A DNA stretch of 64,000 bases. Source: a virus. How positions within the stretch are numbered: position 1 is the stretch's first letter; the number at the start of each line of letters is the position of its first letter. Below, one piece after another: positions 2 to 15,459 of this stretch. The notes beneath the pieces are model-generated. The model made no database searches. It was not told the origin of the DNA and saw only the letters and a program-made list of their open reading frames with translations. The stretch covers positions 1-64,000 of IMG/VR virus record IMGVR_UViG_3300042897_000994, one strand, 5' to 3'. A program made the translations under genes and the position numbers.

Positions 2-2799
2 ACTTCAGGTTCGAGCGGTTCTTCGGGAACTAGCGGCAGTTCAGGTTCAAGCGGTACCAGTGGTTCATCAGGTACTTCAGGCTCAAGTGGTTCTTCTGGA
101 ACGAGTGGTTCATCAGGTTCAAGTGGTACCTCAGGAAGTTCAGGTATATCAGGTGTAGATGGTACTGATGGAAGTTCTGGTTCTAGTGGTTCGAGCGGAA
201 CATCTGGTTCAAGTGGTTCTTCAGGAACATCTGGTTCGTCTGGAACAAGTGGTTCATCGGGAACTTCAGGTTCTTCAGGATCATCTGGAACGAGTGGTTC
301 TTCAGGTTCATCAGGAACCTCAGGCTCGTCTGGTACTTCGGGAAGTTCTGGGACATCTGGCTCATCTGGAACGAGTGGTTCTAGTGGAAGCTCGGGGACT
401 TCAGGTTCATCAGGTTCTTCAGGAACTGGAGGAACATCAGGTTCATCGGGTACTAGTGGTTCATCAGGTACTTCAGGAAGTTCTGGAACATCTGGATCGA
501 GTGGCTCGAGTGGAACAAGCGGAAGTTCAGGTTCATCAGGAACTAGTGGAAGTTCAGGATCGAGTGGAAGTTCAGGAACGAGTGGAACTAGTGGAGTTAG
601 TGGAGCATCTGGTACTAGCGGAACATCAGGTTCAAGTGGTACAAGTGGAAGCTCAGGCGCAACAGGAGCACAAGGCGTTCAGGGAGCACAGGGAGCACAA
701 GGCGTTCAAGGTGCACAAGGAAACCAAGGAGCACAGGGAGCACAAGGAAACCAAGGAGCACAGGGAGCACAGGGCGTTCAAGGAGCAACTGGAAACCAAG
801 GCGCACAAGGAGCACAAGGAGCTGCAGGATCAAGTGGATCTTCAGGAACTTCAGGTGCAACAGGAGCACAAGGCGTTCAAGGTGCACAAGGAAACCAAGG
901 AGCACAGGGTGCACAAGGAAACCAAGGAGCACAGGGAGCACAAGGAAACCAAGGAGCACAGGGAGCACAGGGTGTTCAAGGAGCAACTGGAAACCAAGGC
1001 GCACAAGGAGCACAAGGAGCTGCAGGATCAAGTGGATCAAGCGGAACGAGTGGTTCATCTGGTTCTTCAGGTTCATCAGGAACTTCGGGTTCATCTGGAA
1101 CAAGTGGTTCAAGTGGAACGAGTGGTTCAAGTGGTTCTTCTGGAACTAGTGGTTCTTCCGGTATATCGGGTGTAGATGGTACCGACGGAAGCTCTGGATC
1201 GAGTGGAAGTTCAGGAACTTCAGGAGCACAAGGTGCACAAGGTGCACAAGGTGTTCAAGGGGCACAAGGAAACCAAGGAGCGCAGGGAGCGCAAGGAAAC
1301 CAAGGAGCACAAGGAGCACAGGGTGTTCAAGGAGCAACGGGAAACCAAGGAGCACAGGGAGCACAAGGAGCTGCTGGATCAAGTGGTTCAAGCGGAACTT
1401 CAGGTGCAACAGGAAACCAGGGAGCACAAGGAGCACAAGGAGCACAAGGTGTTCAAGGAGCACAAGGAGCACAAGGTGTTCAAGGAGCACAAGGAGCACA
1501 AGGTGTTCAAGGAGCAACAGGAAACCAAGGAGCACAAGGAGCGCAAGGAAACCAAGGAGCACAAGGAGCACAGGGTGTTCAAGGAGCAACAGGAAACCAA
1601 GGAGCACAGGGAGCACAAGGAGCTGCTGGATCAAGTGGTTCAAGCGGAACTTCAGGTGCAACAGGAAACCAGGGAGCACAAGGAGCACAAGGTGTTCAAG
1701 GAGCACAAGGAGCACAAGGTGTTCAAGGAGCACAAGGAGCACAAGGTGTTCAAGGAGCAACAGGAAACCAAGGAGCACAAGGAGCACAAGGAGCTGCTGG
1801 ATCTTCGGGGTCGAGCGGAACTAGTGGTAGTTCCGGAACTAGTGGTAGTTCTGGGGTAAGTGGTATTGCTGGAACTAATGGTACATCTGGTTCTTCAGGA
1901 TCGAGCGGAACTTCAGGTGCAACAGGAAACCAAGGAGCACAAGGAGCACAGGGTGTTCAAGGAGCAACAGGAAACCAAGGGGCACAAGGAGCACAAGGAG
2001 CACAGGGTGTTCAAGGAGCAACAGGAAACCAAGGGGCACAAGGAGCACAAGGAGCGCAGGGTGTTCAAGGAGCAACAGGAAACCAAGGAGCACAAGGAGC
2101 TGCTGGATCTTCAGGATCGAGTGGAACTTCAGGTGCAACAGGAGCACAAGGTGTTCAAGGAGCAACAGGAAACCAAGGAGCACAAGGAGCACAGGGTGTT
2201 CAAGGAGCAACAGGAAACCAAGGAGCACAAGGAGCACAAGGAGCACAGGGTGTTCAAGGAGCAACAGGAAACCAAGGAGCACAAGGAGCACAAGGAGCAC
2301 AGGGTGTTCAAGGAGCAACAGGAAACCAAGGAGCACAAGGAGCTGCTGGATCTTCAGGATCGAGTGGAACTTCAGGTGCAACAGGAAACCAAGGAGCACA
2401 AGGAGCACAAGGTGTTCAAGGAGCAACAGGAAACCAAGGGGCACAAGGAGCACAGGGTGTTCAAGGAGCAACAGGAAACCAAGGAGCACAAGGTGCACAA
2501 GGTGTTCAAGGAGCAACAGGAAACCAAGGAGCACAAGGAGCACAGGGTGTTCAAGGAGCAACAGGAAACCAAGGAGCACAAGGTGCCGGAGGAGCTGCTG
2601 GATCTTCAGGATCGAGTGGAACTTCAGGTGCAACAGGAAACCAAGGAGCACAAGGAAACCAAGGAGCACAAGGAGCACAAGGAAATGCAGGAGCGCAAGG
2701 AGCACAAGGAAATGCAGGAGCACAGGGAGCACAAGGAAATGCAGGAGCACAGGGGGCACAAGGAAATGCAGGAGCACAAGGGGCACAAGGTGCAGCGGT
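2..2799 (+). repeat. 9-bp-unit tandem repeat (GSS/GTS and GAQ/GNQ/GVQ/GAT triplets) with higher-order units of about 243-252 bp
   Basis: ggagcacaa, ggaaaccaa and ggtgttcaa units. The gctgctggatc... block recurs at 1370, 1622, 2099, 2342 and 2594. Confidence 0.95.
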
Positions 2800-3277
2800 A
2801 TCAGTGTCTGGAACCAACAATACAGTAGTTAAATTTACAGGCGCAAGTACAGTAGGAAATAGCCAGATCACGGACGATGGTACTACCGTTACTATGACGG
2901 GAAGACTCGGAGTTGGTTCCGGTGTTAGTGTACCAGCAACCAATGGGGTAATTGTTGCAACAAATGATGTAATAGCTTTTGCTTCCTCCGACTCTAGGTT
3001 AAAAGATAATAAAACTATTCTGACTAACCCTCTAGATAAAGTTTCTAAACTGAATGGGTACGAGTTCGATTGGATCCCGATGCTTGGAATTCACGAAAAT
3101 GAAGGACACGATATTGGTTTAATAGCACAAGAGGTTGAAAAAGTACTGCCAGAAATTGTTAAAACTCGTGATAATGGATATAAAGCTATTAGATACGAGA
3201 AGATCGTTCCTCTACTAATTGAAGCTATTAAAGAGCTAAGCGCGGAGATAGATAAATTAAAAAGTAAAAAATCATAA
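2..3277 (+). CDS. Long tail fibre, 5'-truncated: about 930 residues of G-X-Y repeats plus a C-terminal intramolecular chaperone (peptidase S74-like) domain
   Basis: Frame 2 reads [12 protein letters not shown] from base 2 and joins the track ORF 2804..3277 in frame. The C-terminus SDSRLKDN...LNGYEFDW...[16 protein letters not shown]...[20 protein letters not shown] is the typical S74 chaperone. Confidence 0.88.
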
Positions 3278-3279
3278 TT

Positions 3280-3990
3280 ATGACAACACCAGCATCTGGA
3301 CAAATTTCAATGGACGACGTTAAAGCCGAGGTTGGTTTCGGTAATCCAGTAAAAATGTCAGATTTATACGGTTTAGCTCTTGTGCAGGGCGCGGGCGGAT
3401 TGATGTATCATAATCTAAATATGTCTCCTGGTAATGCAACAACGGCCAAGGTTGCAATCTATGATCCAAACAATGCAAATCAAAATAGGTCTTTAGATAA
3501 TTGGTACAACTACGATCAAACTCCAAATATAGTATTAAACTTTGATGTAATAAACCAGGTAGGCACAGGAGACATTATTTTTGAGCTTTATATAGTTGAT
3601 CCTGACACTGCACCCCCAACGTTTATTCAATTTAACCCCCCTTACACAGGAAACCTGGCACCTGCTGGTGGTAATGTTAGTGAAACAAATTTTGATACGG
3701 GAGTGCCCGTTGCGAGCATTGTGCAGGGTTACAAAATCGGGGTGGAAGCTGCTTATGCACCTAATCCTCCACCTCCCCCCACCCCGGCGGTTGCTATAAC
3801 AGCAGACGTATTTGGAGCTGCGAGTGATACTGATGGTGTAGGTCCTGGTACGTTTAGAAGAGGATTAGGTCCAACCTTCGACACGGACACTCCGCTGCCA
3901 CAAACAATAATTGTTGACGGAAATACCCCATCCGGGAGAACGGAAATTTTGATTAACAAGAGAACCACTTTTACGTTAACTTTTGTGTAA
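3280..3990 (+). CDS. Putative fibre-tip or adhesin protein
   Basis: Directly follows the fibre gene. The N-terminal TTPASGQISMDDVKAE motif is typical of proteins encoded after S74-bearing fibres. Beta-rich, Pro-rich C-terminal part. Confidence 0.5.
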   Translation: MTTPASGQISMDDVKAEVGFGNPVKMSDLYGLALVQGAGGLMYHNLNMSPGNATTAKVAIYDPNNANQNRSLDNWYNYDQTPNIVLNFDVINQVGTGDIIFELYIVDPDTAPPTFIQFNPPYTGNLAPAGGNVSETNFDTGVPVASIVQGYKIGVEAAYAPNPPPPPTPAVAITADVFGAASDTDGVGPGTFRRGLGPTFDTDTPLPQTIIVDGNTPSGRTEILINKRTTFTLTFV

Positions 3991-4059
3991 TTCTCCGTTT
4001 CTTCCGGTTATGTAAGTTAAAACATTAACGTACTAAAGATCTAGTTTCTTAAAAAGATG

Positions 4060-4085
4060 AAACTATTTCTAAATTTCTTCTAAAA
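4060..4085 (+). promoter_or_regulatory. Putative early/middle promoter AAAC-N17-TAAAA
   Basis: AAAC at 4060-4063 and TAAAA at 4081-4085. The same spacing occurs at five other + strand sites. Confidence 0.55.
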
Positions 4086-4092
4086 GTTAAAT

Positions 4093-4578
4093 ATGTCTAC
4101 AATAAAGAACGATATTTTTTACGAGTGGGTGAAAGGTGATTATACCGGAAACCTAGAAAAAATAACTTCTGAAGAGATTGAAAATGGAATAGAGTGGATT
4201 AATTTCGAGAGCGGCAGAAGAATAAACAAATCTCTTTTTGGAGAATTTTTACTCATAAATGAAAATGGAGTAAGTTCTATAGAACCTATCGGAAATCTGA
4301 CAGTGCCAGTAGTTTCTCCAAAGATTCAAGTTCAAGAAGAAAAATTACAAGAAAGTCCAATTTCAATCTTATTAAAGACACAAAAGAAAAGAAAAACAGA
4401 AAAGATGGTTTTAGAATTCGATCTAGAATTACCTTCGCCTGAAATACTTTTGATTATGTATGAATCTTTTGGTGAAGATCTTTTTTCTGAAATATATAAG
4501 ATGAATCTTTCTAATTTTAAAGATTCTTTACCCTCTAAATTTGATGAAGCTATAAAATCTTACTTAAAAATAAAATGA
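4093..4578 (+). CDS. Hypothetical protein
   Basis: 161-aa ORF with an ATGA-type overlap to the next gene. Confidence 0.75.
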   Translation: MSTIKNDIFYEWVKGDYTGNLEKITSEEIENGIEWINFESGRRINKSLFGEFLLINENGVSSIEPIGNLTVPVVSPKIQVQEEKLQESPISILLKTQKKRKTEKMVLEFDLELPSPEILLIMYESFGEDLFSEIYKMNLSNFKDSLPSKFDEAIKSYLKIK

Positions 4579-4853
4579 GTATAACAAGAAGACAAAAAAG
4601 AGCCTATAAAAAGGCTACCGGAGACCTAAAAAGAAAAAGATCCCAGAGTGTTTCTAACTGGATAGAAGAAGTTAGAAATAATATAAAAGAAGGTCAAAAC
4701 ATGCATCTAGCGTTTGTCGATCATCAGGATAAAATGGTATATGAACAGCTCCAAAAAAAGGAAGAGTCGATCATCGAGTGGCTTCGTGATAAAGGATATA
4801 ATGAAGATCAAATAAAGACTCACCTCGACTCTTGGTATCAATCTCTAGCGTAA
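4575..4853 (+). CDS. Hypothetical protein with a basic N-terminus
   Basis: 92 aa, starts MSITRRQKRAYKK, coupled to the upstream gene. Confidence 0.75.
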   Translation: MSITRRQKRAYKKATGDLKRKRSQSVSNWIEEVRNNIKEGQNMHLAFVDHQDKMVYEQLQKKEESIIEWLRDKGYNEDQIKTHLDSWYQSLA

Positions 4854-4855
4854 GA

Positions 4856-5248
4856 ATGTTATTTAATTGTGTCTATTCTAGGGATGCAGTTAATATAAAT
4901 CTCTTTCTAAGAGAAAGAGAAGGTCTTGTTGTCAGCTATATTGATATTACAAATAAGCTCTCTAAAAGAGACGTTTATAACGAAGAGCCCAGTGATGATA
5001 TAGTAGCCTTTCATGTATTTTCTTCTCTTCGAGAATCTTTATCTCTGGTTCAAGATTCTGAGAATTTGTTTTATGTTCTTAGCTCTACCGAAACTGAGAT
5101 TATGGAAAATTTAAGAGAATTAATTGAAGAAATTTATCAGAAAGAATTTATTTTCAATCTGTACATACACGAAGGAGAAACCCCCGAGAATGATTCTGTC
5201 TTTGATAATATTCTGTATTACAAAAATGAAGAAACACAGAATTTTTAA
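4856..5248 (+). CDS. Hypothetical protein
   Basis: The ATG at 4856, just after the previous stop, is preferred over the track start at 4832. Confidence 0.7.
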   Translation: MLFNCVYSRDAVNINLFLREREGLVVSYIDITNKLSKRDVYNEEPSDDIVAFHVFSSLRESLSLVQDSENLFYVLSSTETEIMENLRELIEEIYQKEFIFNLYIHEGETPENDSVFDNILYYKNEETQNF

Positions 5249-6222: not shown

Positions 6223-6237
6223 GATATATAAAAAAAA
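6223..6237 (+). promoter_or_regulatory. Putative late promoter GATATATA plus A-run
   Basis: GATATATAAAAAAAA just upstream of the baseplate operon. The motif recurs many times in the window. Confidence 0.65.
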
Positions 6238-8255: not shown

Positions 8256-8785
8256 ATTTTAAAGTATTTGACTATAAGCCTACACTGATAGACGAAAACG
8301 GCGACGAGTTTTTTGATTTATCGGCTCCTGTATTTGATTATAATTCAGATACAGCAAAGGCACTCGTTTTTGTGAATCAAGAATATAATGGTAGAGCTGA
8401 CTTGATTGCGTTTGATCAATTCGGAGATGAAGGATATTTAGATAGTATTATGAAAGTAAACAATCTCTACAATCCGTTTGCTGTTGAAGAGGGGCAATTT
8501 TTGTTGATTCCTGCGGTAGAATCGGGAAGCCCTTTTTACACAAAACCTGCGCAGGTTCAACTTCCAGCAAATGACACAGCCACAACTCAATATCAGCAGC
8601 CTGATCCGAATAACGAAAAAGATAAAAACAGAGTTGAGAGACTAAAACAGATTGCAGCAAAACAATCCAATGGAGTAACTGTACCTCTACCTCCGAATGC
8701 TCTTCAGCCCGGAGAAGAGATGTTTAAAAAACAACCTAACAGCACTGTTATTGCTGGAGCTAACATGAATATTAGAACTGATTAA
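8252..8785 (+). CDS. Baseplate wedge protein, gp53/LysM-like
   Basis: GRADLIAFDQFGD...IMKVNNLYNPFAVEEGQFLLIP matches the gp53/tail-X LysM-type pattern. Confidence 0.7.
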   Translation: MNFKVFDYKPTLIDENGDEFFDLSAPVFDYNSDTAKALVFVNQEYNGRADLIAFDQFGDEGYLDSIMKVNNLYNPFAVEEGQFLLIPAVESGSPFYTKPAQVQLPANDTATTQYQQPDPNNEKDKNRVERLKQIAAKQSNGVTVPLPPNALQPGEEMFKKQPNSTVIAGANMNIRTD

Positions 8786-10275
8786 TGGCAAGCTCAAAAG
8801 AACTTCGAATTTTACAAATAACCAAACCTGAGATAGTTCTAGATCAGATAAAACATGATGATTTAGAAAACAGTACAAATAATAAGTACAACCTCGGTAA
8901 AATGTGGGGATTTGTGTTTCCTTTGATTAAGATCAACGGAAAAATGTATACTGATTCTGATATCGACTTTTTTCAGCTTAATGTTTCTGGTTTTTTACCA
9001 ACTATAACTCTAACTGTGGTCGATCTTCATAATCAATTTAAGAACAGAAACTTTCCGATGGCTGGGGCTGTAATTTCTGTTTTTATTAGAGGTGCTGGAG
9101 ATGATAAAATATTTAAACCGATAAGAATTGATTTTGATACCGTTTCGATAACTCCATTTGGTGGCGTTCCGGGGAAAGGTACGATGTTCAGAATGACTGG
9201 AAAAATGCGGGTTCCTAATCTTTTTAAAGATACTTGCGGGTATTTTTCTGGAACTTCTTTTGAAACCCTATTAGAAATTAGTAAAAAAATGCAACTAGGT
9301 TTTTCATCTAATGTCACGGGCACGAGTGATTCTATGAATTGGATAAACCCTACAGATACCACAGCAAGATTTGTACAAGATATAACCTCTTCTGCGTATT
9401 TAGATGAAGATAGCTTTTTTGGTTCATATATAGATCCATACTATCTTTTAAATTTTGTAGAGTTAAATAGACTTTATCAAGATACTGCTGATATCGAACA
9501 GAGTTTTAATTTTAGCGCATCAGATGTAAGTTCTTATGTAAAGAATGTAGAAGATTCTCAGGGTGAAGCAAACGTGTTAACAAACCATCCAGAAATGCGC
9601 GGAACTGCTCGATATCTAGACGCTTACAATTCTTACAATAATACATCTAAAATTACAACGGATCATGGTTATTTTAGATTTGAGCAGCACTATGATGTAG
9701 ATAATAAAGAATATGTCAATGAATTCGTAGATCCTTTCGCTACAGATGATCCTAATAAAGTTACTTTAAAAGGCAGGGGAGTAGGTTTTTATGATAAAGG
9801 ATCGCAGGCGGTTCCTGAATTTTCTTTTAAACAGAGAGATTTTAAAACAAAATATCTAGGAAAACAAGGATCAAATATGCATCCTCAGTTTAATTATTCC
9901 ATCATCTTGAATTATCAAAATCAACTCGAAATTCAGAAATATGGACTAGTTGTAACATTAAACGCTGTAAATCCTGCTCTTCATAGATTTCAAAGGATTT
10001 TTGTGATAATTTATGATTTTGGAAGATCACAGACTTCTACTATGGATGAAGAGCTGAATAAAACACAAAATAGAGAACCTAGCGAAGGGGCTCAAAGTAC
10101 AAACTATAAAACAGGAAATAGCGGAGAATTTGGAGAACAAACTCAATCTCTAAACCAGGCACTAAGTGGATTTTATGTAATATCAGAAATTTCTTATAAG
10201 TATGACTCTACTATATCTAGTAATATATCTATGGAGCTTGTTCTTTCGAGAAGAGACTTAATTGCATCTCCATAA
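8785..10275 (+). CDS. Baseplate hub protein (gp27/VgrG-N-like)
   Basis: Position between the gp53-like and gp5-like genes. C-terminal LSGFYVISEISYKY...MELVLSRRD is typical of hub proteins. Confidence 0.55.
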   Translation: MASSKELRILQITKPEIVLDQIKHDDLENSTNNKYNLGKMWGFVFPLIKINGKMYTDSDIDFFQLNVSGFLPTITLTVVDLHNQFKNRNFPMAGAVISVFIRGAGDDKIFKPIRIDFDTVSITPFGGVPGKGTMFRMTGKMRVPNLFKDTCGYFSGTSFETLLEISKKMQLGFSSNVTGTSDSMNWINPTDTTARFVQDITSSAYLDEDSFFGSYIDPYYLLNFVELNRLYQDTADIEQSFNFSASDVSSYVKNVEDSQGEANVLTNHPEMRGTARYLDAYNSYNNTSKITTDHGYFRFEQHYDVDNKEYVNEFVDPFATDDPNKVTLKGRGVGFYDKGSQAVPEFSFKQRDFKTKYLGKQGSNMHPQFNYSIILNYQNQLEIQKYGLVVTLNAVNPALHRFQRIFVIIYDFGRSQTSTMDEELNKTQNREPSEGAQSTNYKTGNSGEFGEQTQSLNQALSGFYVISEISYKYDSTISSNISMELVLSRRDLIASP

Positions 10276-10290: not shown

Positions 10291-11889
10291 ATGGCATTTG
10301 ATCCAGAAAGTTTAGGCGCTGCATTTGGCAGAAATCGTGGCTTCAGAGATGCAGCTGTAAAGCAGTTTGTTGACTCTGGTGCTCAAAATAATGTAGGCTT
10401 CGGTTATCAGATTGGAGAAGTTCCTCTGAATAAAATAGAAGATCCTACATACTTAGGTTTTTCTTTTGTTTTTGACAAAATGTCTCCACTTTTTAATTTA
10501 AGCGATGGAGCTACAGACAACACAGCATATAGTTATCTTTTACACACATATCCAGAAGGTAATCAGTTAAGAGCTAAATACATGAGAGCTTTTGTAGAAT
10601 CTTTTTTAGCTATTAATGATAGATTCCCTTATTATTTTCAATCGATAGAAGGATTAGATACGATATGGAAAAAAACAACTATGTTCACCGATCCGTATTT
10701 CGGGGGAGATGATTCAAAAATATCAGTAGATTGTCTAGAGGCTTTAGATCTTAAAATTACCGGGATCATGGACCTTTATAGAAAAGCTGTATATGATCCG
10801 ATAAATAGAAGAGTTATTCTTCCTGAAAATTTAAGAGAATTTGATGTAGTAGTTTATGTAAAAGAAATTAGAAAATTTAGAACTTCCGCAAAAAGACTTT
10901 CAGACCTTTTAGTAACTACGAATCCTCTAGCTAACACTTTTAATAATGTAGATTTAGATCAAATTCCACCTACTGAATTTAACTCAACCGCTCAGTTTGT
11001 AAATGAAAATTCTTCATTCGTTTCTTTTACTCTCAAGTTTTGTGAATTTGTACCAGAAGATTCATCTGCATTTTTAGACAACGTTTCAAACGTCGGTGGA
11101 GAATCTGCAAAGCAGAAAATATCTTGGATTTGGAAAGATGTAGAAGAAAACAACAGATATTCAAGTCTAGTTTATTTTGCAAGTAGTTTAGCAGCAAACG
11201 GGTTAGGTGCAAATTCTGGAGGTAACGGAAGTAGATGGGCAAACGCTGCAAGAGAATTTGCTAAATCAGTAATTTATCAAGGAATTGGAGCTGCTACTCA
11301 AAAACTTGCAAATGTTATTAATCAGGGTCAGCTAGGAAACGTATTTGGATTTAGTCCAAATCAGCTACAGACTCTTCTCGTTTCTCAGAGCATCGATTCT
11401 GTAATCAGATCTGCTACAACACCAGAAGAAGATACAGATGAATTAGGAAGGCTTAAAGTTTTTTCAGAAACATTAGAAAGACCGGGTTTGGATGAATTTA
11501 ATTTGTTCGGAGAGCCCGGCGGAGAGCCTCCTCAATATACGGGAGAAAAAATCTTACCAGATGGAAATCTTCCTACGAATAAAGACGGAAATCAATCTTC
11601 GCCACTAAACGGAACTGGAAATCCTTTGGATTCTAATCCAAACCCAATAACTCCCCTGAAACCTGACAACAATTTCCCAACACCTCCGGGACCACAAGCG
11701 TTTACGGGTACTAATGTTTTAGAATCTAATCAAAATCCTACCACACCTTTAACTCCAGATAAAGTTTTAGATGCTGCTCAAACTCCTACAAATCGTGATG
11801 GATCAGAGCCACCAAAATTAAAAAGAGAACAGATACTTGGCGAGGGTGGAGCACCGGGACCGTTAGCACCTGATAATATTTTCGGATGA
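10291..11889 (+). CDS. Tail-tube-fold baseplate protein with a Pro/Asn-rich C-terminal tail
   Basis: YFQSIEGL...ISVDCLEALDLKI...F+C+F pattern resembles tube-fold proteins. Baseplate context. Confidence 0.45.
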   Translation: MAFDPESLGAAFGRNRGFRDAAVKQFVDSGAQNNVGFGYQIGEVPLNKIEDPTYLGFSFVFDKMSPLFNLSDGATDNTAYSYLLHTYPEGNQLRAKYMRAFVESFLAINDRFPYYFQSIEGLDTIWKKTTMFTDPYFGGDDSKISVDCLEALDLKITGIMDLYRKAVYDPINRRVILPENLREFDVVVYVKEIRKFRTSAKRLSDLLVTTNPLANTFNNVDLDQIPPTEFNSTAQFVNENSSFVSFTLKFCEFVPEDSSAFLDNVSNVGGESAKQKISWIWKDVEENNRYSSLVYFASSLAANGLGANSGGNGSRWANAAREFAKSVIYQGIGAATQKLANVINQGQLGNVFGFSPNQLQTLLVSQSIDSVIRSATTPEEDTDELGRLKVFSETLERPGLDEFNLFGEPGGEPPQYTGEKILPDGNLPTNKDGNQSSPLNGTGNPLDSNPNPITPLKPDNNFPTPPGPQAFTGTNVLESNQNPTTPLTPDKVLDAAQTPTNRDGSEPPKLKREQILGEGGAPGPLAPDNIFG

Positions 11890-12638
11890 GAAAAGAGATA
11901 GATCCAATAAATGATAATTTAGCAACCACTAAGTGGGTAGGAGTAGTCGTGAACAATGACGATCCTCTTCGTTTAGGAAGATGTCAGGTTAGAATATTCG
12001 GAAAGTTTGATATGAGAGAAGATCCTTTCTCAAATGATAGCCCCTTTATTATTCCAGATGAAAATCTTCCTTGGAGTTATCCAGCTACTTCTACTACTGC
12101 TTCATCCGAAACAGGAGGTGCTGGATTTTCTGTTCCAAAAATAAACTCTATAGTTTCCGTAACTTTTGATAATGGAAACCCATACTTTCCAGAATATAAT
12201 TTTAATCAACACTATTCAGATGAAGTTTTAACTGAAATCCAAAATAGTTATGCAAATGCTCATGTTCTTTGGTATGATGTTGTAACTGAAGGCGGTATGA
12301 AAGTTTTCTTTACCGAAGAAAAAGGCTTGGTGTTAGATTATAAAGAAACACAACTAAACGTCAAACCAGATAATTCAATTGTAATTCTAAACCCAAACGG
12401 TGATACTGTAACTCTTTCAAATGATGGTAATTTAACTATCAAAACTTCATCTAAAGTAAAGGTTGATTCTCCTTCTATAGAACTAGGTTCCAAAGCAGCA
12501 GAAGCGGTGATAAAAGGAAATACATTTCAGGCTTTGTTTAATGCGCATACTCATATCGGAAATCTAGGAGCGCCTACAGGTCCACCGATTATTCCACTAA
12601 ATGGATCTGAATTAAGTACAGTAACTAAAACCCAATAA
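11886..12638 (+). CDS. Baseplate central spike, gp5-like (OB-fold plus beta-helix, no lysozyme domain)
   Basis: WVGVVVNNDDPLRLGRCQVRIFG...LPW...VPKINSIVSVTF.NGNP.FP; C-terminal FNAHTH metal-binding apex motif. Confidence 0.85.
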   Translation: MRKEIDPINDNLATTKWVGVVVNNDDPLRLGRCQVRIFGKFDMREDPFSNDSPFIIPDENLPWSYPATSTTASSETGGAGFSVPKINSIVSVTFDNGNPYFPEYNFNQHYSDEVLTEIQNSYANAHVLWYDVVTEGGMKVFFTEEKGLVLDYKETQLNVKPDNSIVILNPNGDTVTLSNDGNLTIKTSSKVKVDSPSIELGSKAAEAVIKGNTFQALFNAHTHIGNLGAPTGPPIIPLNGSELSTVTKTQ

Positions 12639-12640
12639 TT

Positions 12641-12931
12641 ATGCCACTAATACCGAATACATTAGAAACAGTTTTGGCCGAAGCTTTTGATAAAGGAATG
12701 CTTGTATTTGCTGAAACAATTAAAAATTCTCCGCCCGGAACAGATGTGAGTGATGATGCCCGTAGATTGGCTGCCAAAACTTTTGCCACTATAGCTTCTA
12801 CTGCTATTGATGCATATATTAGATCAGCTACTATAATAGTTCCTCCAGGGCAAGTTGTAACTGCGGCTAGTCCCGCAGGCCCGGTTGCTGGATCAACTAC
12901 CTCTCCTTCAGCTCCCGCAATAATTTCTTAG
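12641..12931 (+). CDS. Small spike-associated protein
   Basis: 96 aa directly after gp5, with an AIDAYIRSAT motif. Confidence 0.5.
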   Translation: MPLIPNTLETVLAEAFDKGMLVFAETIKNSPPGTDVSDDARRLAAKTFATIASTAIDAYIRSATIIVPPGQVVTAASPAGPVAGSTTSPSAPAIIS

Positions 12932-12938
12932 ATTCAAA

Positions 12939-12947
12939 GATATATAA
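12939..12947 (+). promoter_or_regulatory. Putative late promoter GATATATAA (S1 gene)
   Basis: Motif match about 25 nt upstream of the ATG at 12973. Confidence 0.55.
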
Positions 12948-12972
12948 TCTGTACACTTTTAATTTAGACTAA

Positions 12973-14097
12973 ATGCCTATACAAAAAATTCAAATTCTTC
13001 GAGACGAAGAAAACCCATTTGACGTAATTGAAACAGAAGTAGAAGTACCAAAAGGAAGTAAAATCCTATCAAATGAACCTTATGTTCTAGATGTACTACA
13101 CTATTACTTTAAAAATTCTGAAGTATCTTTCAAACCTATCACCGACAATGAAATTATAGATTCAAAAATAATCTATATTTCGGAGTCTTCTATTATTGTA
13201 GACATTAACGGAAAAGACAATGCCTACATCGATCTCCTAAAGGAGAAAATGTCTTCAAATGAATTCCGAATTGGAGACACTGTCAAAATTAAAGTTAAAA
13301 AAGGCCATAAAGAAGGAAGCATCGAAGCGAGCATTGGTGCAGCTTCTACACAGGGAAAGATCGAGGACTTAGTAAATTCAATCGGTTCTAAAACTGTAGC
13401 TTACAAAGCACAAGTTAAAGAACTTATCAACGGTGGATATTATCTAATGATAGACGATATAAAAGTATTTATGCCTGGTTCACTTGCAGGTATGAACAAA
13501 CTTTCAGATTTTGAAAGAATGCTGGGAAAAGAAATTATTGTAATGCCTGTAAACTTCTCCAAAGAAAGAAATATTGTAGTAGTTTCTCACAGAGAATATT
13601 TAAAAACTTTGGTCCCTGTTGCAATTGATAGAGTTAGTGAAAATCCAAATGATCTCAGAGAAGGTACAGTTACCGGAACTTCGGGTTCTGGGATATTTGT
13701 AGAGTTTGAAGAATGTCTAACAGGATTGATCACCGTAACCGAAATGGAAAGGTGTAAAACCGATTTCGAGAATGGAAGTATTAAACCTGGGGATTCTATT
13801 CAATTTAGAATTAAGCAAATCATTAGTGAGACTAAGATTATTTTAACACAAAAGGAGAGGGAATATAGTCCATGGGATGACATCGAGGATAGATACTCAC
13901 CCGAAACCAGAATCACTGGAAATGTAGTAAAGAAAGCATCTTACGGTCTCTTTGTTGAAATTGAAAAAGGCATCAATGGTCTTCTTCACTCATCAAACAT
14001 AAAGGGTGATAATTTTGAAGAAGGAGATTCAATCGATGTAATTATTACCAAGATAGATCCTGTAAATAGAAAAATAACCCTTAGAAGAAAAAGGTAA
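12973..14097 (+). CDS. rpsA: Phage-encoded ribosomal protein S1-like protein (four S1 domains)
   Basis: Repeated S1 motifs: IIVDINGKDNAYI, NGGYYLMIDDIKVFMPGS...IVVVSHR, GTVTGTSGSGIFVEF..LTGLI, PWDDIEDRY...GNVVKKASYGLFVEIEKGINGLLHSSNI...IDPVNRKITL. Confidence 0.85.
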   Translation: MPIQKIQILRDEENPFDVIETEVEVPKGSKILSNEPYVLDVLHYYFKNSEVSFKPITDNEIIDSKIIYISESSIIVDINGKDNAYIDLLKEKMSSNEFRIGDTVKIKVKKGHKEGSIEASIGAASTQGKIEDLVNSIGSKTVAYKAQVKELINGGYYLMIDDIKVFMPGSLAGMNKLSDFERMLGKEIIVMPVNFSKERNIVVVSHREYLKTLVPVAIDRVSENPNDLREGTVTGTSGSGIFVEFEECLTGLITVTEMERCKTDFENGSIKPGDSIQFRIKQIISETKIILTQKEREYSPWDDIEDRYSPETRITGNVVKKASYGLFVEIEKGINGLLHSSNIKGDNFEEGDSIDVIITKIDPVNRKITLRRKR

Positions 14098-14116
14098 AGG
14101 CTTAATCTCAGGTAAG

Positions 14117-14145
14117 AAAAAACCTAGCTTCGGCTAGGTTTTTTT
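14117..14145 (+). terminator. Intrinsic terminator, probably bidirectional
   Basis: AAAAAACCTAGC-TTCG-GCTAGGTTTTTTT, with a C(UUCG)G tetraloop. Confidence 0.9.
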
Positions 14146-14151
14146 GTGTGA

Positions 14152-14165
14152 GATATATAAAAAAA
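14152..14165 (+). promoter_or_regulatory. Putative late promoter GATATATA plus A-run
   Basis: Immediately after the terminator and before the GTG start at 14176. Confidence 0.65.
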
Positions 14166-14175
14166 GTCTACTAAT

Positions 14176-15459
14176 GTGAATTTTACAAGAGAGGAAACCC
14201 TTTATAATACTATCATTTCTTACACTTCTGAATTTTATTCGGAATTAGGAATGGATGATGTTAAAGCATTAATTTCATCATCTTTAGGAAGAAAAGTCTA
14301 TCCTAAAGATTCTTTCCAGTTAACAGAAACTCTGATGCACGATTATCTCAGAATTTCTAAAAATTCAGCAGGAAAGTACTCAATGACCACCGGCTATTTG
14401 AGATATTCCGAAGGTCGTTTGTATCTTACAAAAATGTTGAATATGATTGATGAGAATTTCTCAACCGAAAAGGACTGTAGTCTAAATTTCAGTGTAATGT
14501 ATTCTGCTTATGATCAACCAGGTACTCCTGATATATCAAGATTAGATTCTCTTAAGTTTATTTTAGAATATGATGAAAACGTTCCATACACACATTTCCC
14601 AGAGAGAAAAAATGTACTTTATTCAAAGTCTATCAAAAATATTCTTCCTGGCAGCAAATTTTTCACAGAAAGCTCAGCAAACATTTCTTCTAGAAACTAC
14701 AGCTATCCTTTTCAGCCTTATTTTGCTGTAGATTTTTCTTCTCTAAAAAGAGGCAATCTAACTTTTAGATATATTGGTGGAGAAGATTATCAAAAGAAAG
14801 AAGGAATTAGAGAGATTATTGAATATTCTTCTTTAACTCTCTATAGTTGCATCAGAAATCCGTACATTAACGAAAAGAACAAAGCTGAATTAGATAAGAT
14901 TCTAAGTAAACATCAAGCAATTTCCGATTCTTATTCTTCAGCTACCGATTTTAAAAGGAGTTTTCCTGATATTACTCTGATGGTAAATCTGCAATCAGAT
15001 AAGAGAGTGATTGATACGATGTATCCTTACATCAGAGATAAAATATACAATCTTCTAATTGAATGCAATTTTCAAAGGGGCTACTTGAACTATGATTCAA
15101 ATAACGGAAAGCTTCAGATTAAAGATGCAGAGATCAATAATGCATATCTGATTGACAACATAGACATCTTTGATTCGAAAATAGAAGGTACCATTTCGAA
15201 TTGTGATATATTTCAATCTGAAATCAAAGAATCTGAAATTTTTAGATGTAACTTGTTTGATAGATCTAAAGCTATTAATTGCTACCTATACAATTCTTAT
15301 GTGAACGGAAATAGCATACTCAATGAATCTACAGTAGAAGGTGATCTTGGTATATTTTCGGGGAAGATGAAAGATGGAGTTTTTGTCTCTGGAAAAATAA
15401 CTCAAAGTGCTAATCTATCTGATACCACTAAAGTAATCTCATACCAAAAAATAAGCTAA
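14176..15459 (+). CDS. Amidoligase-like (COOH-NH2 ligase) protein, apparently degenerate, with a C-terminal beta-helix
   Basis: YFAVDFSSLKRGNLTFRYIGGEDYQKK resembles the amidoligase EFRYxGG region. The C-terminus has short I/C-x-x-S repeats. GTG start. Confidence 0.5.
   Translation: MNFTREETLYNTIISYTSEFYSELGMDDVKALISSSLGRKVYPKDSFQLTETLMHDYLRISKNSAGKYSMTTGYLRYSEGRLYLTKMLNMIDENFSTEKDCSLNFSVMYSAYDQPGTPDISRLDSLKFILEYDENVPYTHFPERKNVLYSKSIKNILPGSKFFTESSANISSRNYSYPFQPYFAVDFSSLKRGNLTFRYIGGEDYQKKEGIREIIEYSSLTLYSCIRNPYINEKNKAELDKILSKHQAISDSYSSATDFKRSFPDITLMVNLQSDKRVIDTMYPYIRDKIYNLLIECNFQRGYLNYDSNNGKLQIKDAEINNAYLIDNIDIFDSKIEGTISNCDIFQSEIKESEIFRCNLFDRSKAINCYLYNSYVNGNSILNESTVEGDLGIFSGKMKDGVFVSGKITQSANLSDTTKVISYQKIS

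Follow-up and report, generated by a model that had tools for sequence, protein, structure and literature searches.

Why does a phage keep a homolog of ribosomal protein S1 among the genes for its baseplate and neck, and where would such a protein act? The question is raised by a gene at positions 12973-14097 of IMG/VR virus record IMGVR_UViG_3300042897_000994, of which we analysed the first 64 kb (positions 1 to 64,000, referred to below as the window). The complete record is 160,937 bp long, is estimated to represent about 50% of its genome, has a G+C content of 34%, and carries 165 of its 170 open reading frames (ORFs) on the + strand, where the S1 gene and the other features located in the window also lie. 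The phage is large and T4-like, and its hosts are probably Bacteroidota. Judged from homology, an AlphaFold2 (AF2) model and Foldseek matches, the 374-amino acid (aa) product is a phage-adapted paralog of ribosomal protein bS1, shortened to four domains. Our best reading, to which we give a rough probability of 0.55, is that it is expressed late in infection and would dock on the host ribosome in the manner of bS1.

In Bacteroidota, whose mRNAs carry no Shine-Dalgarno sites, recruitment of messages to the ribosome is believed to depend mainly on bS1; a bS1 supplied by a phage would therefore act on a key step of initiation in the host. The family is also very common (at least 581 IMG/VR contigs, from marine and freshwater sources, encode a relative) and strictly conserved, so that a result obtained with one member would speak for a whole clade of abundant environmental phages. 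Phage S1 genes and the idea of ribosome hijacking are already in print in the passages of Al-Shayeb et al. 2020 that we draw on, and the value of the present analysis is incremental. To those passages we add a domain map, candidate docking residues, an invariant gene order, a conserved late promoter-like motif, evidence of purifying selection and a conserved, enzyme-like neighbour, and we remove an argument based on the melting of RNA hairpins.

Domain architecture of the S1 homolog

In a phmmer comparison with the PDB, residues 59-373 of the phage protein were colinear with residues 21-347 of Escherichia coli bS1, that is, with its domains D1 through D4 (E 3e-32), and the NCBIfam rpsA models matched the protein at E 1e-45 to 1e-47. 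The Pfam S1 model was matched clearly at residues 225-292 (E 1.1e-8) and 311-372 (E 1.6e-9), weakly at residues 59-120 (E 0.03), and not within residues 135-222. An AF2 model made from a 44-homolog alignment (mean predicted local distance difference test score, pLDDT, of 85) contained four oligonucleotide/oligosaccharide-binding (OB) folds, at residues 61-120, 144-205, 229-292 and 313-372, preceded by a beta-hairpin (strands 3-9 and 18-24) and a helix (38-50); a model from the single sequence reached a pLDDT of 35 and was discarded. The best Foldseek matches were to ribosome-bound bS1 (9gut_B, E 3e-25), and the D1-D2 pair could be superposed on 30S-bound D1-D2 (9guq_B, template-modelling score 0.69 by target). 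A first-pass annotation of the window, made from its letters, had described four S1 domains plus an N-terminal extension. The alignment with bS1 D1-D4, the AF2 model and the Foldseek matches show that description to be correct, the extension being 58 residues long.

In the nucleotide sequence, the modelled beta-hairpin (residues 1-35) and the helix that follows it, a candidate uS2-binding element, are encoded at 12973-13122. OB domain 1, the counterpart of bS1 D1 by alignment and AF2, is encoded at 13153-13332 and holds residue K81; OB domain 2, assigned to D2 on the same two grounds, is encoded at 13402-13587 and holds the motif FMPGSL..G.NKL. OB domains 3 (13657-13848) and 4 (13909-14088) are supported by both Pfam S1 and AF2, and the sequence of domain 4 includes the canonical RNA-binding signature YGLFVE...GLLH. 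The protein stops 2 residues past D4, and the six-domain architecture of bS1 from Gram-negative bacteria and Bacteroidota is not present. We also considered whether the N-terminal hairpin is an extension of the Bacteroidota type, and rejected this because a profile search found no bacterial counterpart for residues 1-35.

Candidate ribosome-docking features

In E. coli, bS1 is held on uS2 by Phe5 and Phe9 of its N-terminal helix, Lys43 from a loop of D1 enters the zinc pocket of uS2, and D2 sits in the platform cleft; D1 and D2 of bacterial bS1 have no detectable RNA binding and serve in contacts with proteins and the ribosome (PMC10123108). Residue K81 of the phage protein aligns with this lysine and is kept in at least 90% of 44 family members, and the uS2 pocket residues N204, D205 and D206 are invariant across 20 Bacteroidota uS2 sequences. 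Within D2, the columns F166, M167, P168, G169, S170, G173 and N175 through L177 are invariant among the 44 family members, and the phage FMPGSL aligns with AFLPGS of E. coli and Bacteroidota bS1. The predicted helix to the N-terminal side of D1 has an LxxLY pattern, which aligns with ELxKLYE of Bacteroidota bS1 and with the Phe5/Phe9 helix of E. coli, and its aromatic residues are Y44, Y45 and F46. Docking on the ribosome is the best reading of the protein since both K81 and the bS1-type D2 motif have been kept.

We also predicted a complex between residues 1-140 of the S1 homolog and a Bacteroidota uS2. The score was 0.60, as compared with 0.00 for the best control, and separate runs agreed in at least 82% of contacts with a partner pLDDT of at least 77. 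The support is weak. Of 80 solved complexes, 58 reached the passing mark, as did 2 of 110 mismatched pairs, and the passing scores of 0.60 or less came from only 7 of the 80 solved complexes and from both mismatches. Because the E. coli complex has already been solved, the prediction may reflect no more than likeness to it, and does not show binding.

If the protein does dock in this way, we envisage that late in infection helix 38-50, lysine K81 of the D1 loop and the bS1-type D2 would attach it to uS2 on the 30S subunit of the host. Domains D3 and D4 would then bind RNA and capture the A-rich leaders of Bacteroidota type, which have no Shine-Dalgarno sites, and the phage copy would supplement or replace host bS1 during the bulk synthesis of virion proteins.

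Late promoter-like motif, leader and terminator

A late promoter-like motif, GATATATAAT, is located at 12939-12948, 34 nt upstream of the S1 ATG; its core, GATATATAA, occupies 12939-12947. All 20 copies of GATATATAA in the 161 kb are on the + strand. Its distance from the start codon is 20-28 nt for 16 genes and 34 nt for S1, and the genes that stand behind it encode a tail sheath, a prohead protease, a head-closure protein and a fibre-like protein. The record also encodes a gp55-like late sigma factor of 120 aa (66440-66802 of the record; PHROG 234, E 1e-13; Pfam Sigma70_r2 weak), and T4-like genes for head closure (gp4-like), a DNA end protector (gp2-like) and the portal (gp20) come after it. 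On the strength of the strand bias, the virion target genes and the gp55-like sigma, GATATATAA is best read as a counterpart of the T4 late promoter. Thus the S1 gene does appear to possess a late motif of its own, as the first-pass annotation had it. Of 79 related loci, 72 also have the motif 32-40 nt ahead of the S1 start; these 72 represent 14 of 18 sequence clusters.

Other GATATATAA sites in the window are at 6223, 14152, 28207, 44837, 48532 and 63498, among others, and an A-run usually comes directly after the motif. If transcription starts about 6 nt past GATATATAA, the late mRNA leaders would be about 8-13 nt long and without a Shine-Dalgarno site. The S1 leader (12948-12972) is unlike the other late leaders, being longer, having no A-run, and containing the element CTTTTAA (12956-12962), which ends 10 nt before the ATG. 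CTTTTAA is present in the -30 to -6 region of 2 of the 165 genes of this phage, and 9 of the 18 clusters of relatives have an element of the C(C)TTT(T)AA type in their S1 leaders; the pattern was picked after the data had been seen, and these counts are a lead only. E. coli rpsA is autoregulated, and by analogy the element could possibly serve in autoregulation or in initiation specific to S1.

At the other end of the gene, 20-23 nt past the stop codon, is an intrinsic terminator of the form A6-CCTAGC-UUCG-GCUAGG-U7 (14117-14145). The predicted free energy of this hairpin is -24.2 kcal/mol (z -5.3), and 0 of 200 shuffled sequences folded as well. The A and T tracts lengthen the stem, so that a standard terminator scan misses it; we relied upon our own folding and on an exact-stem scan, which found 11 sites on the + strand with a hairpin followed by a T-run, of which 7 are intergenic and include the S1 terminator. 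These results confirm the UUCG terminator that had been noted from the sequence. Because no terminator intervenes between S1 and the hub operon that precedes it, read-through into S1 is possible. The description of the gene as a self-contained late cassette must accordingly be qualified: it has its own motif and terminator, but it is not strictly self-contained.

Translation signals of the phage and its probable host

Shine-Dalgarno cores (GGAG, GAGG or AGGA at positions -20 to -4) are depleted in this genome, with 10 of the 165 genes having one as compared with 19.0 +/- 4.2 in random windows. The leaders, taken from -20 to -1, are 51% A, as compared with 36% genome-wide. The scarcity of Shine-Dalgarno sites appears to mark the genome as a whole, in the manner of Bacteroidota, and not late genes in particular. 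The A-rich late leaders without Shine-Dalgarno sites that the first-pass annotation described are thus present, as part of a genome-wide pattern. In Bacteroidetes, S1 is thought to drive initiation by selecting unstructured, A/U-rich leaders (PMC3155529).

It had further been suggested that start-occluding hairpins are present, and we rejected these as a general feature of the phage. Windows of 50 nt centred on start codons fold more weakly than windows internal to genes (mean -3.1 versus -6.2 kcal/mol, p 1e-12), and the modelled late leaders are short with little or no structure (0 to -4.9 kcal/mol). Because structure at the starts is weak, the hairpins fail as a general feature, and there is no evident need for S1 to melt RNA.

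Neither tRNA genes nor a bS21 gene were found in the 161 kb. A family member with 40% identity is encoded on PAUJ01000008.1, a 57.8-kb contig that was binned in a marine Flavobacteriaceae metagenome-assembled genome (MAG); this MAG holds its own full-length rpsA on another contig. PAUJ01000008.1 is probably a phage contig that was binned together with its host, and offers a weak hint as to the host.

Conservation and phylogeny of the family

More than 738 matching proteins of 369-387 aa were present in the protein collection. With respect to a 95%-identical relative, the ratio of nonsynonymous to synonymous substitution rates (dN/dS) of the S1 gene was 0.05, and its rate of divergence was about equal to that of its structural neighbours. 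The gene is under strong purifying selection and is a conserved core gene of a large, phage-only clade found in T4-like huge phages.

A FastTree phylogeny of 163 D1-D4 segments, with Shimodaira-Hasegawa (SH)-like support values, arbitrary rooting and few phyla of known identity, grouped the 55 short forms as a single clade with an SH-like support of 100 and a stem length of 0.90. The median number of residues beyond the match is 0 for the short forms and 229 for the long forms. Through the tree, a path of 3.3 or more separates the phage protein from every cellular S1, versus 1.75 between E. coli and Bacteroidota rpsA, and the protein is 24-31% identical to the rpsA products of 31 Bacteroidota and of E. 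coli. We rejected a recent capture of host rpsA in view of this low identity and of the position of the clade on a long stem outside rpsA. By these comparisons the S1 copy is an old phage lineage of S1. The first-pass annotation had put forward phylogeny against host rpsA as a check; in this tree the clade is separate from rpsA of Bacteroidota and E. coli, and it points to no donor.

Neighbouring genes and gene order

Immediately upstream of the S1 motif, at 11886-12931, are the gene for a gp5-like baseplate hub protein (250 aa) and a small ORF of 96 aa. The hub gene matches PHROG 430, baseplate hub, at E 4e-18; the Phage_base_V match is weak here and is found in relatives as well. The S1 protein itself matched no PHROGs family.

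Downstream, the segment 14152-15459 comprises another late motif (14152-14160) and a gene for a 427-aa protein (14176-15459) whose N-terminal half is amidoligase-like and whose C-terminal half is beta-helix-like. This assignment derives from Pfam matches of its orthologs, 3 of 9 of which match Amidoligase_2 (best E 1.5e-6) and 2 of 9 pentapeptide repeats; a PDB profile search with the protein itself found nothing. The first-pass annotation had placed S1 between spike and neck genes. The baseplate and neck cluster is as described, but the gene that adjoins S1 downstream is the amidoligase-like one, and a gp13-like neck gene comes next.

The order of these genes was examined in 80 IMG/VR loci with S1 identities of 40-57%. 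In all 80, wherever the flank exists, it runs: a 496-aa gene, a 532-aa gene, the gp5-like hub gene, an optional small ORF, S1, the 427-aa gene, and then gp13-like neck, gp25-like and gp6-like genes, so that the 427-aa gene is always the next conserved gene past S1. Further contigs, with S1 identities of only 32-39%, keep this order as well. As an exception, one relative with a 33% identical S1 has the gene in a context of nucleotide metabolism, and in another relative, found by a different route, two extra genes stand between S1 and the 427-aa gene. One distant relative has a GIY-YIG/NUMOD homing endonuclease-like gene (8596-9360 of its contig) between the amidoligase-like and gp13-like genes; its helicase gene (1663-5190) gives faint matches of homing endonuclease type, which may mean an intein.

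Two tandem genes of the RimK family of ATP-grasp proteins are located beyond the window, at 106467-107075 (E 6e-40) and 107953-108537 (E 1.5e-27) of the record, and the first of them stands behind a late motif. The best-known member of the RimK family adds glutamates to ribosomal protein S6. The 427-aa amidoligase-like protein may function in partnership with the S1 copy, and together with the two RimK-family ligases it suggests a wider remodelling of the translation apparatus. One may go further and propose that S1 and the amidoligase-like gene form a two-gene module for remodelling ribosomes, fixed in the virion-gene block of the clade, although we would give this proposal little credence. 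The phage S1 would then take the place of host bS1 on 30S subunits, and covalent modification of a ribosomal protein or of the S1 copy would fall to the amidoligase, possibly aided by the two RimK-family ligases. Were this so, the phage would have ribosomes of its own specificity late in infection or, should the proteins be packaged, as soon as a new infection begins.

Weighing of alternative explanations

Several of our observations weigh against docking on the ribosome. The equivalog cut-offs of the NCBIfam rpsA models (524-918 bits) are far above the approximately 160 bits of the phage protein, which scored 159.8 bits against a cut-off of 624 with NF000907, 155.3 against 524 with NF004952, and 136.7 against 577 with TIGR00717. 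A profile of the N-terminus alone, from a 33-sequence set, found bacterial S1 only at E 0.2-0.5. Mean identity within the phage family is 65% for D2, the most conserved domain, and 47% for residues 1-35, which nevertheless have no bacterial counterpart; it is 34% for D1, which is the main uS2-contacting domain and the least conserved of the OB domains. If the late leaders are unstructured and only about 8-13 nt long, a role in melting RNA may be little needed. The host is hinted at only weakly, by related phage-like contigs binned in Flavobacteriaceae and Flavobacteriales MAGs and by the Bacteroidota-type leaders, and the fixed position among virion genes would suit a packaged or structural protein as well. 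Host S1 is a cofactor of T4 RegB and of Q-beta replicase. Such uses of host S1 by phages off the ribosome are known and have been reviewed (PMC13157829), the passages of Al-Shayeb et al. 2020 used here left the choice between action on and off the ribosome undecided, and a poorly conserved D1 joined to two good S1 RNA-binding domains, D3 and D4, would suit a free RNA-binding protein, one that might chaperone or protect late mRNAs, assist a phage enzyme as its cofactor, or act as a decoy for host messages. A free RNA binder needs no D1, D2 or helix, however, and in this family the protein-contact domains D1 and D2 are retained, D2 is the best conserved of all, and the equivalent of Lys43 is conserved. 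We regard action solely off the ribosome as unlikely for these reasons.

The place of the gene invites two further explanations. Its invariant position in the virion-gene module (80 of 80 loci) and its late promoter-like motif could mean that the protein is packed late, injected with the DNA, and put to work on host ribosomes as the next infection begins. Late expression is equally to be expected of a late translation factor, as with phage bS21 (PMC9723584), and no cultured relative was found in the phage collection; we think a role as virion cargo distinctly improbable. Alternatively, four OB folds might have been recruited as a building block of the baseplate or neck, with no role in RNA or ribosome binding, for the gene lies between gp5-like hub and gp13-like neck genes in every locus, and OB folds are common in hub proteins, the adjoining Phage_base_V OB domain being an example. 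Yet the colinear similarity is to bS1 specifically and not to OB folds in general, D4 keeps the YGxFVE...GLLH RNA-binding signature, and the bS1-type motif of D2 is invariant. The adjoining conserved gene, moreover, is enzyme-like, and the cluster thus does hold genes without a structural look. We consider a purely structural role very unlikely, and a late-expressed bS1 paralog that docks on the ribosome remains the reading that we prefer.

Comparison with known systems

The statement in the first-pass annotation that S1 genes have been reported in some large phages agrees with the passages of Al-Shayeb et al. 2020 (PMC7162821) consulted here, in which a possible rpS1 is described for huge phages that rarely have Shine-Dalgarno sites and ribosome hijacking is proposed, "on or off the ribosome"; those passages also say that a true rpS1 is hard to confirm. 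The S1 protein studied here is 42% identical, over 99% of its length, to a protein of LR756500.1 (462 kb), with which the gene order is partly shared, and there were further matches to LR756501-4, LR745206 and Lak phages. Members of this family are labelled as S1 proteins in the supplementary genomes of that report, as far as these were drawn on, and the lack of Shine-Dalgarno sites and the hijacking hypothesis are common to both studies. Absent from the passages cited are the four-domain clade, the position between hub and neck genes, the late promoter and the docking residues.

The phage protein shares with bacterial bS1 (RpsA) domains D1 through D4, a predicted helix ahead of D1, an equivalent of Lys43, the FxPGS motif of D2, and canonical D3 and D4. 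It differs from bS1 in having no D5 or D6, in its length (374 aa versus 557-600 aa), and in having an additional beta-hairpin of 35 residues.

Phage bS21 is a small-subunit protein of initiation that is encoded beside core structural genes in large phages of Bacteroidetes. Metatranscriptome data indicate that it is expressed with late genes, and it has been suggested to give phage transcripts an advantage in the late stage (Chen et al. 2022, PMC9723584). It is, however, a different protein, encoded on the opposite strand and near the capsid genes.

Finally, the genome resembles that of T4 in having T4-like hub, gp6, gp13, gp25, gp4, gp2 and gp20 genes; to our knowledge, T4 itself has no S1 gene and uses the S1 of its host. 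Late transcription in both phages would depend upon one AT-rich element resembling a -10 box, with no -35 element, together with a gp55 or gp55-like sigma factor. The T4 late promoter is TATAAATA, and its putative counterpart here is GATATATAA(T/A), at a nearly fixed distance of 20-28 nt from start codons.

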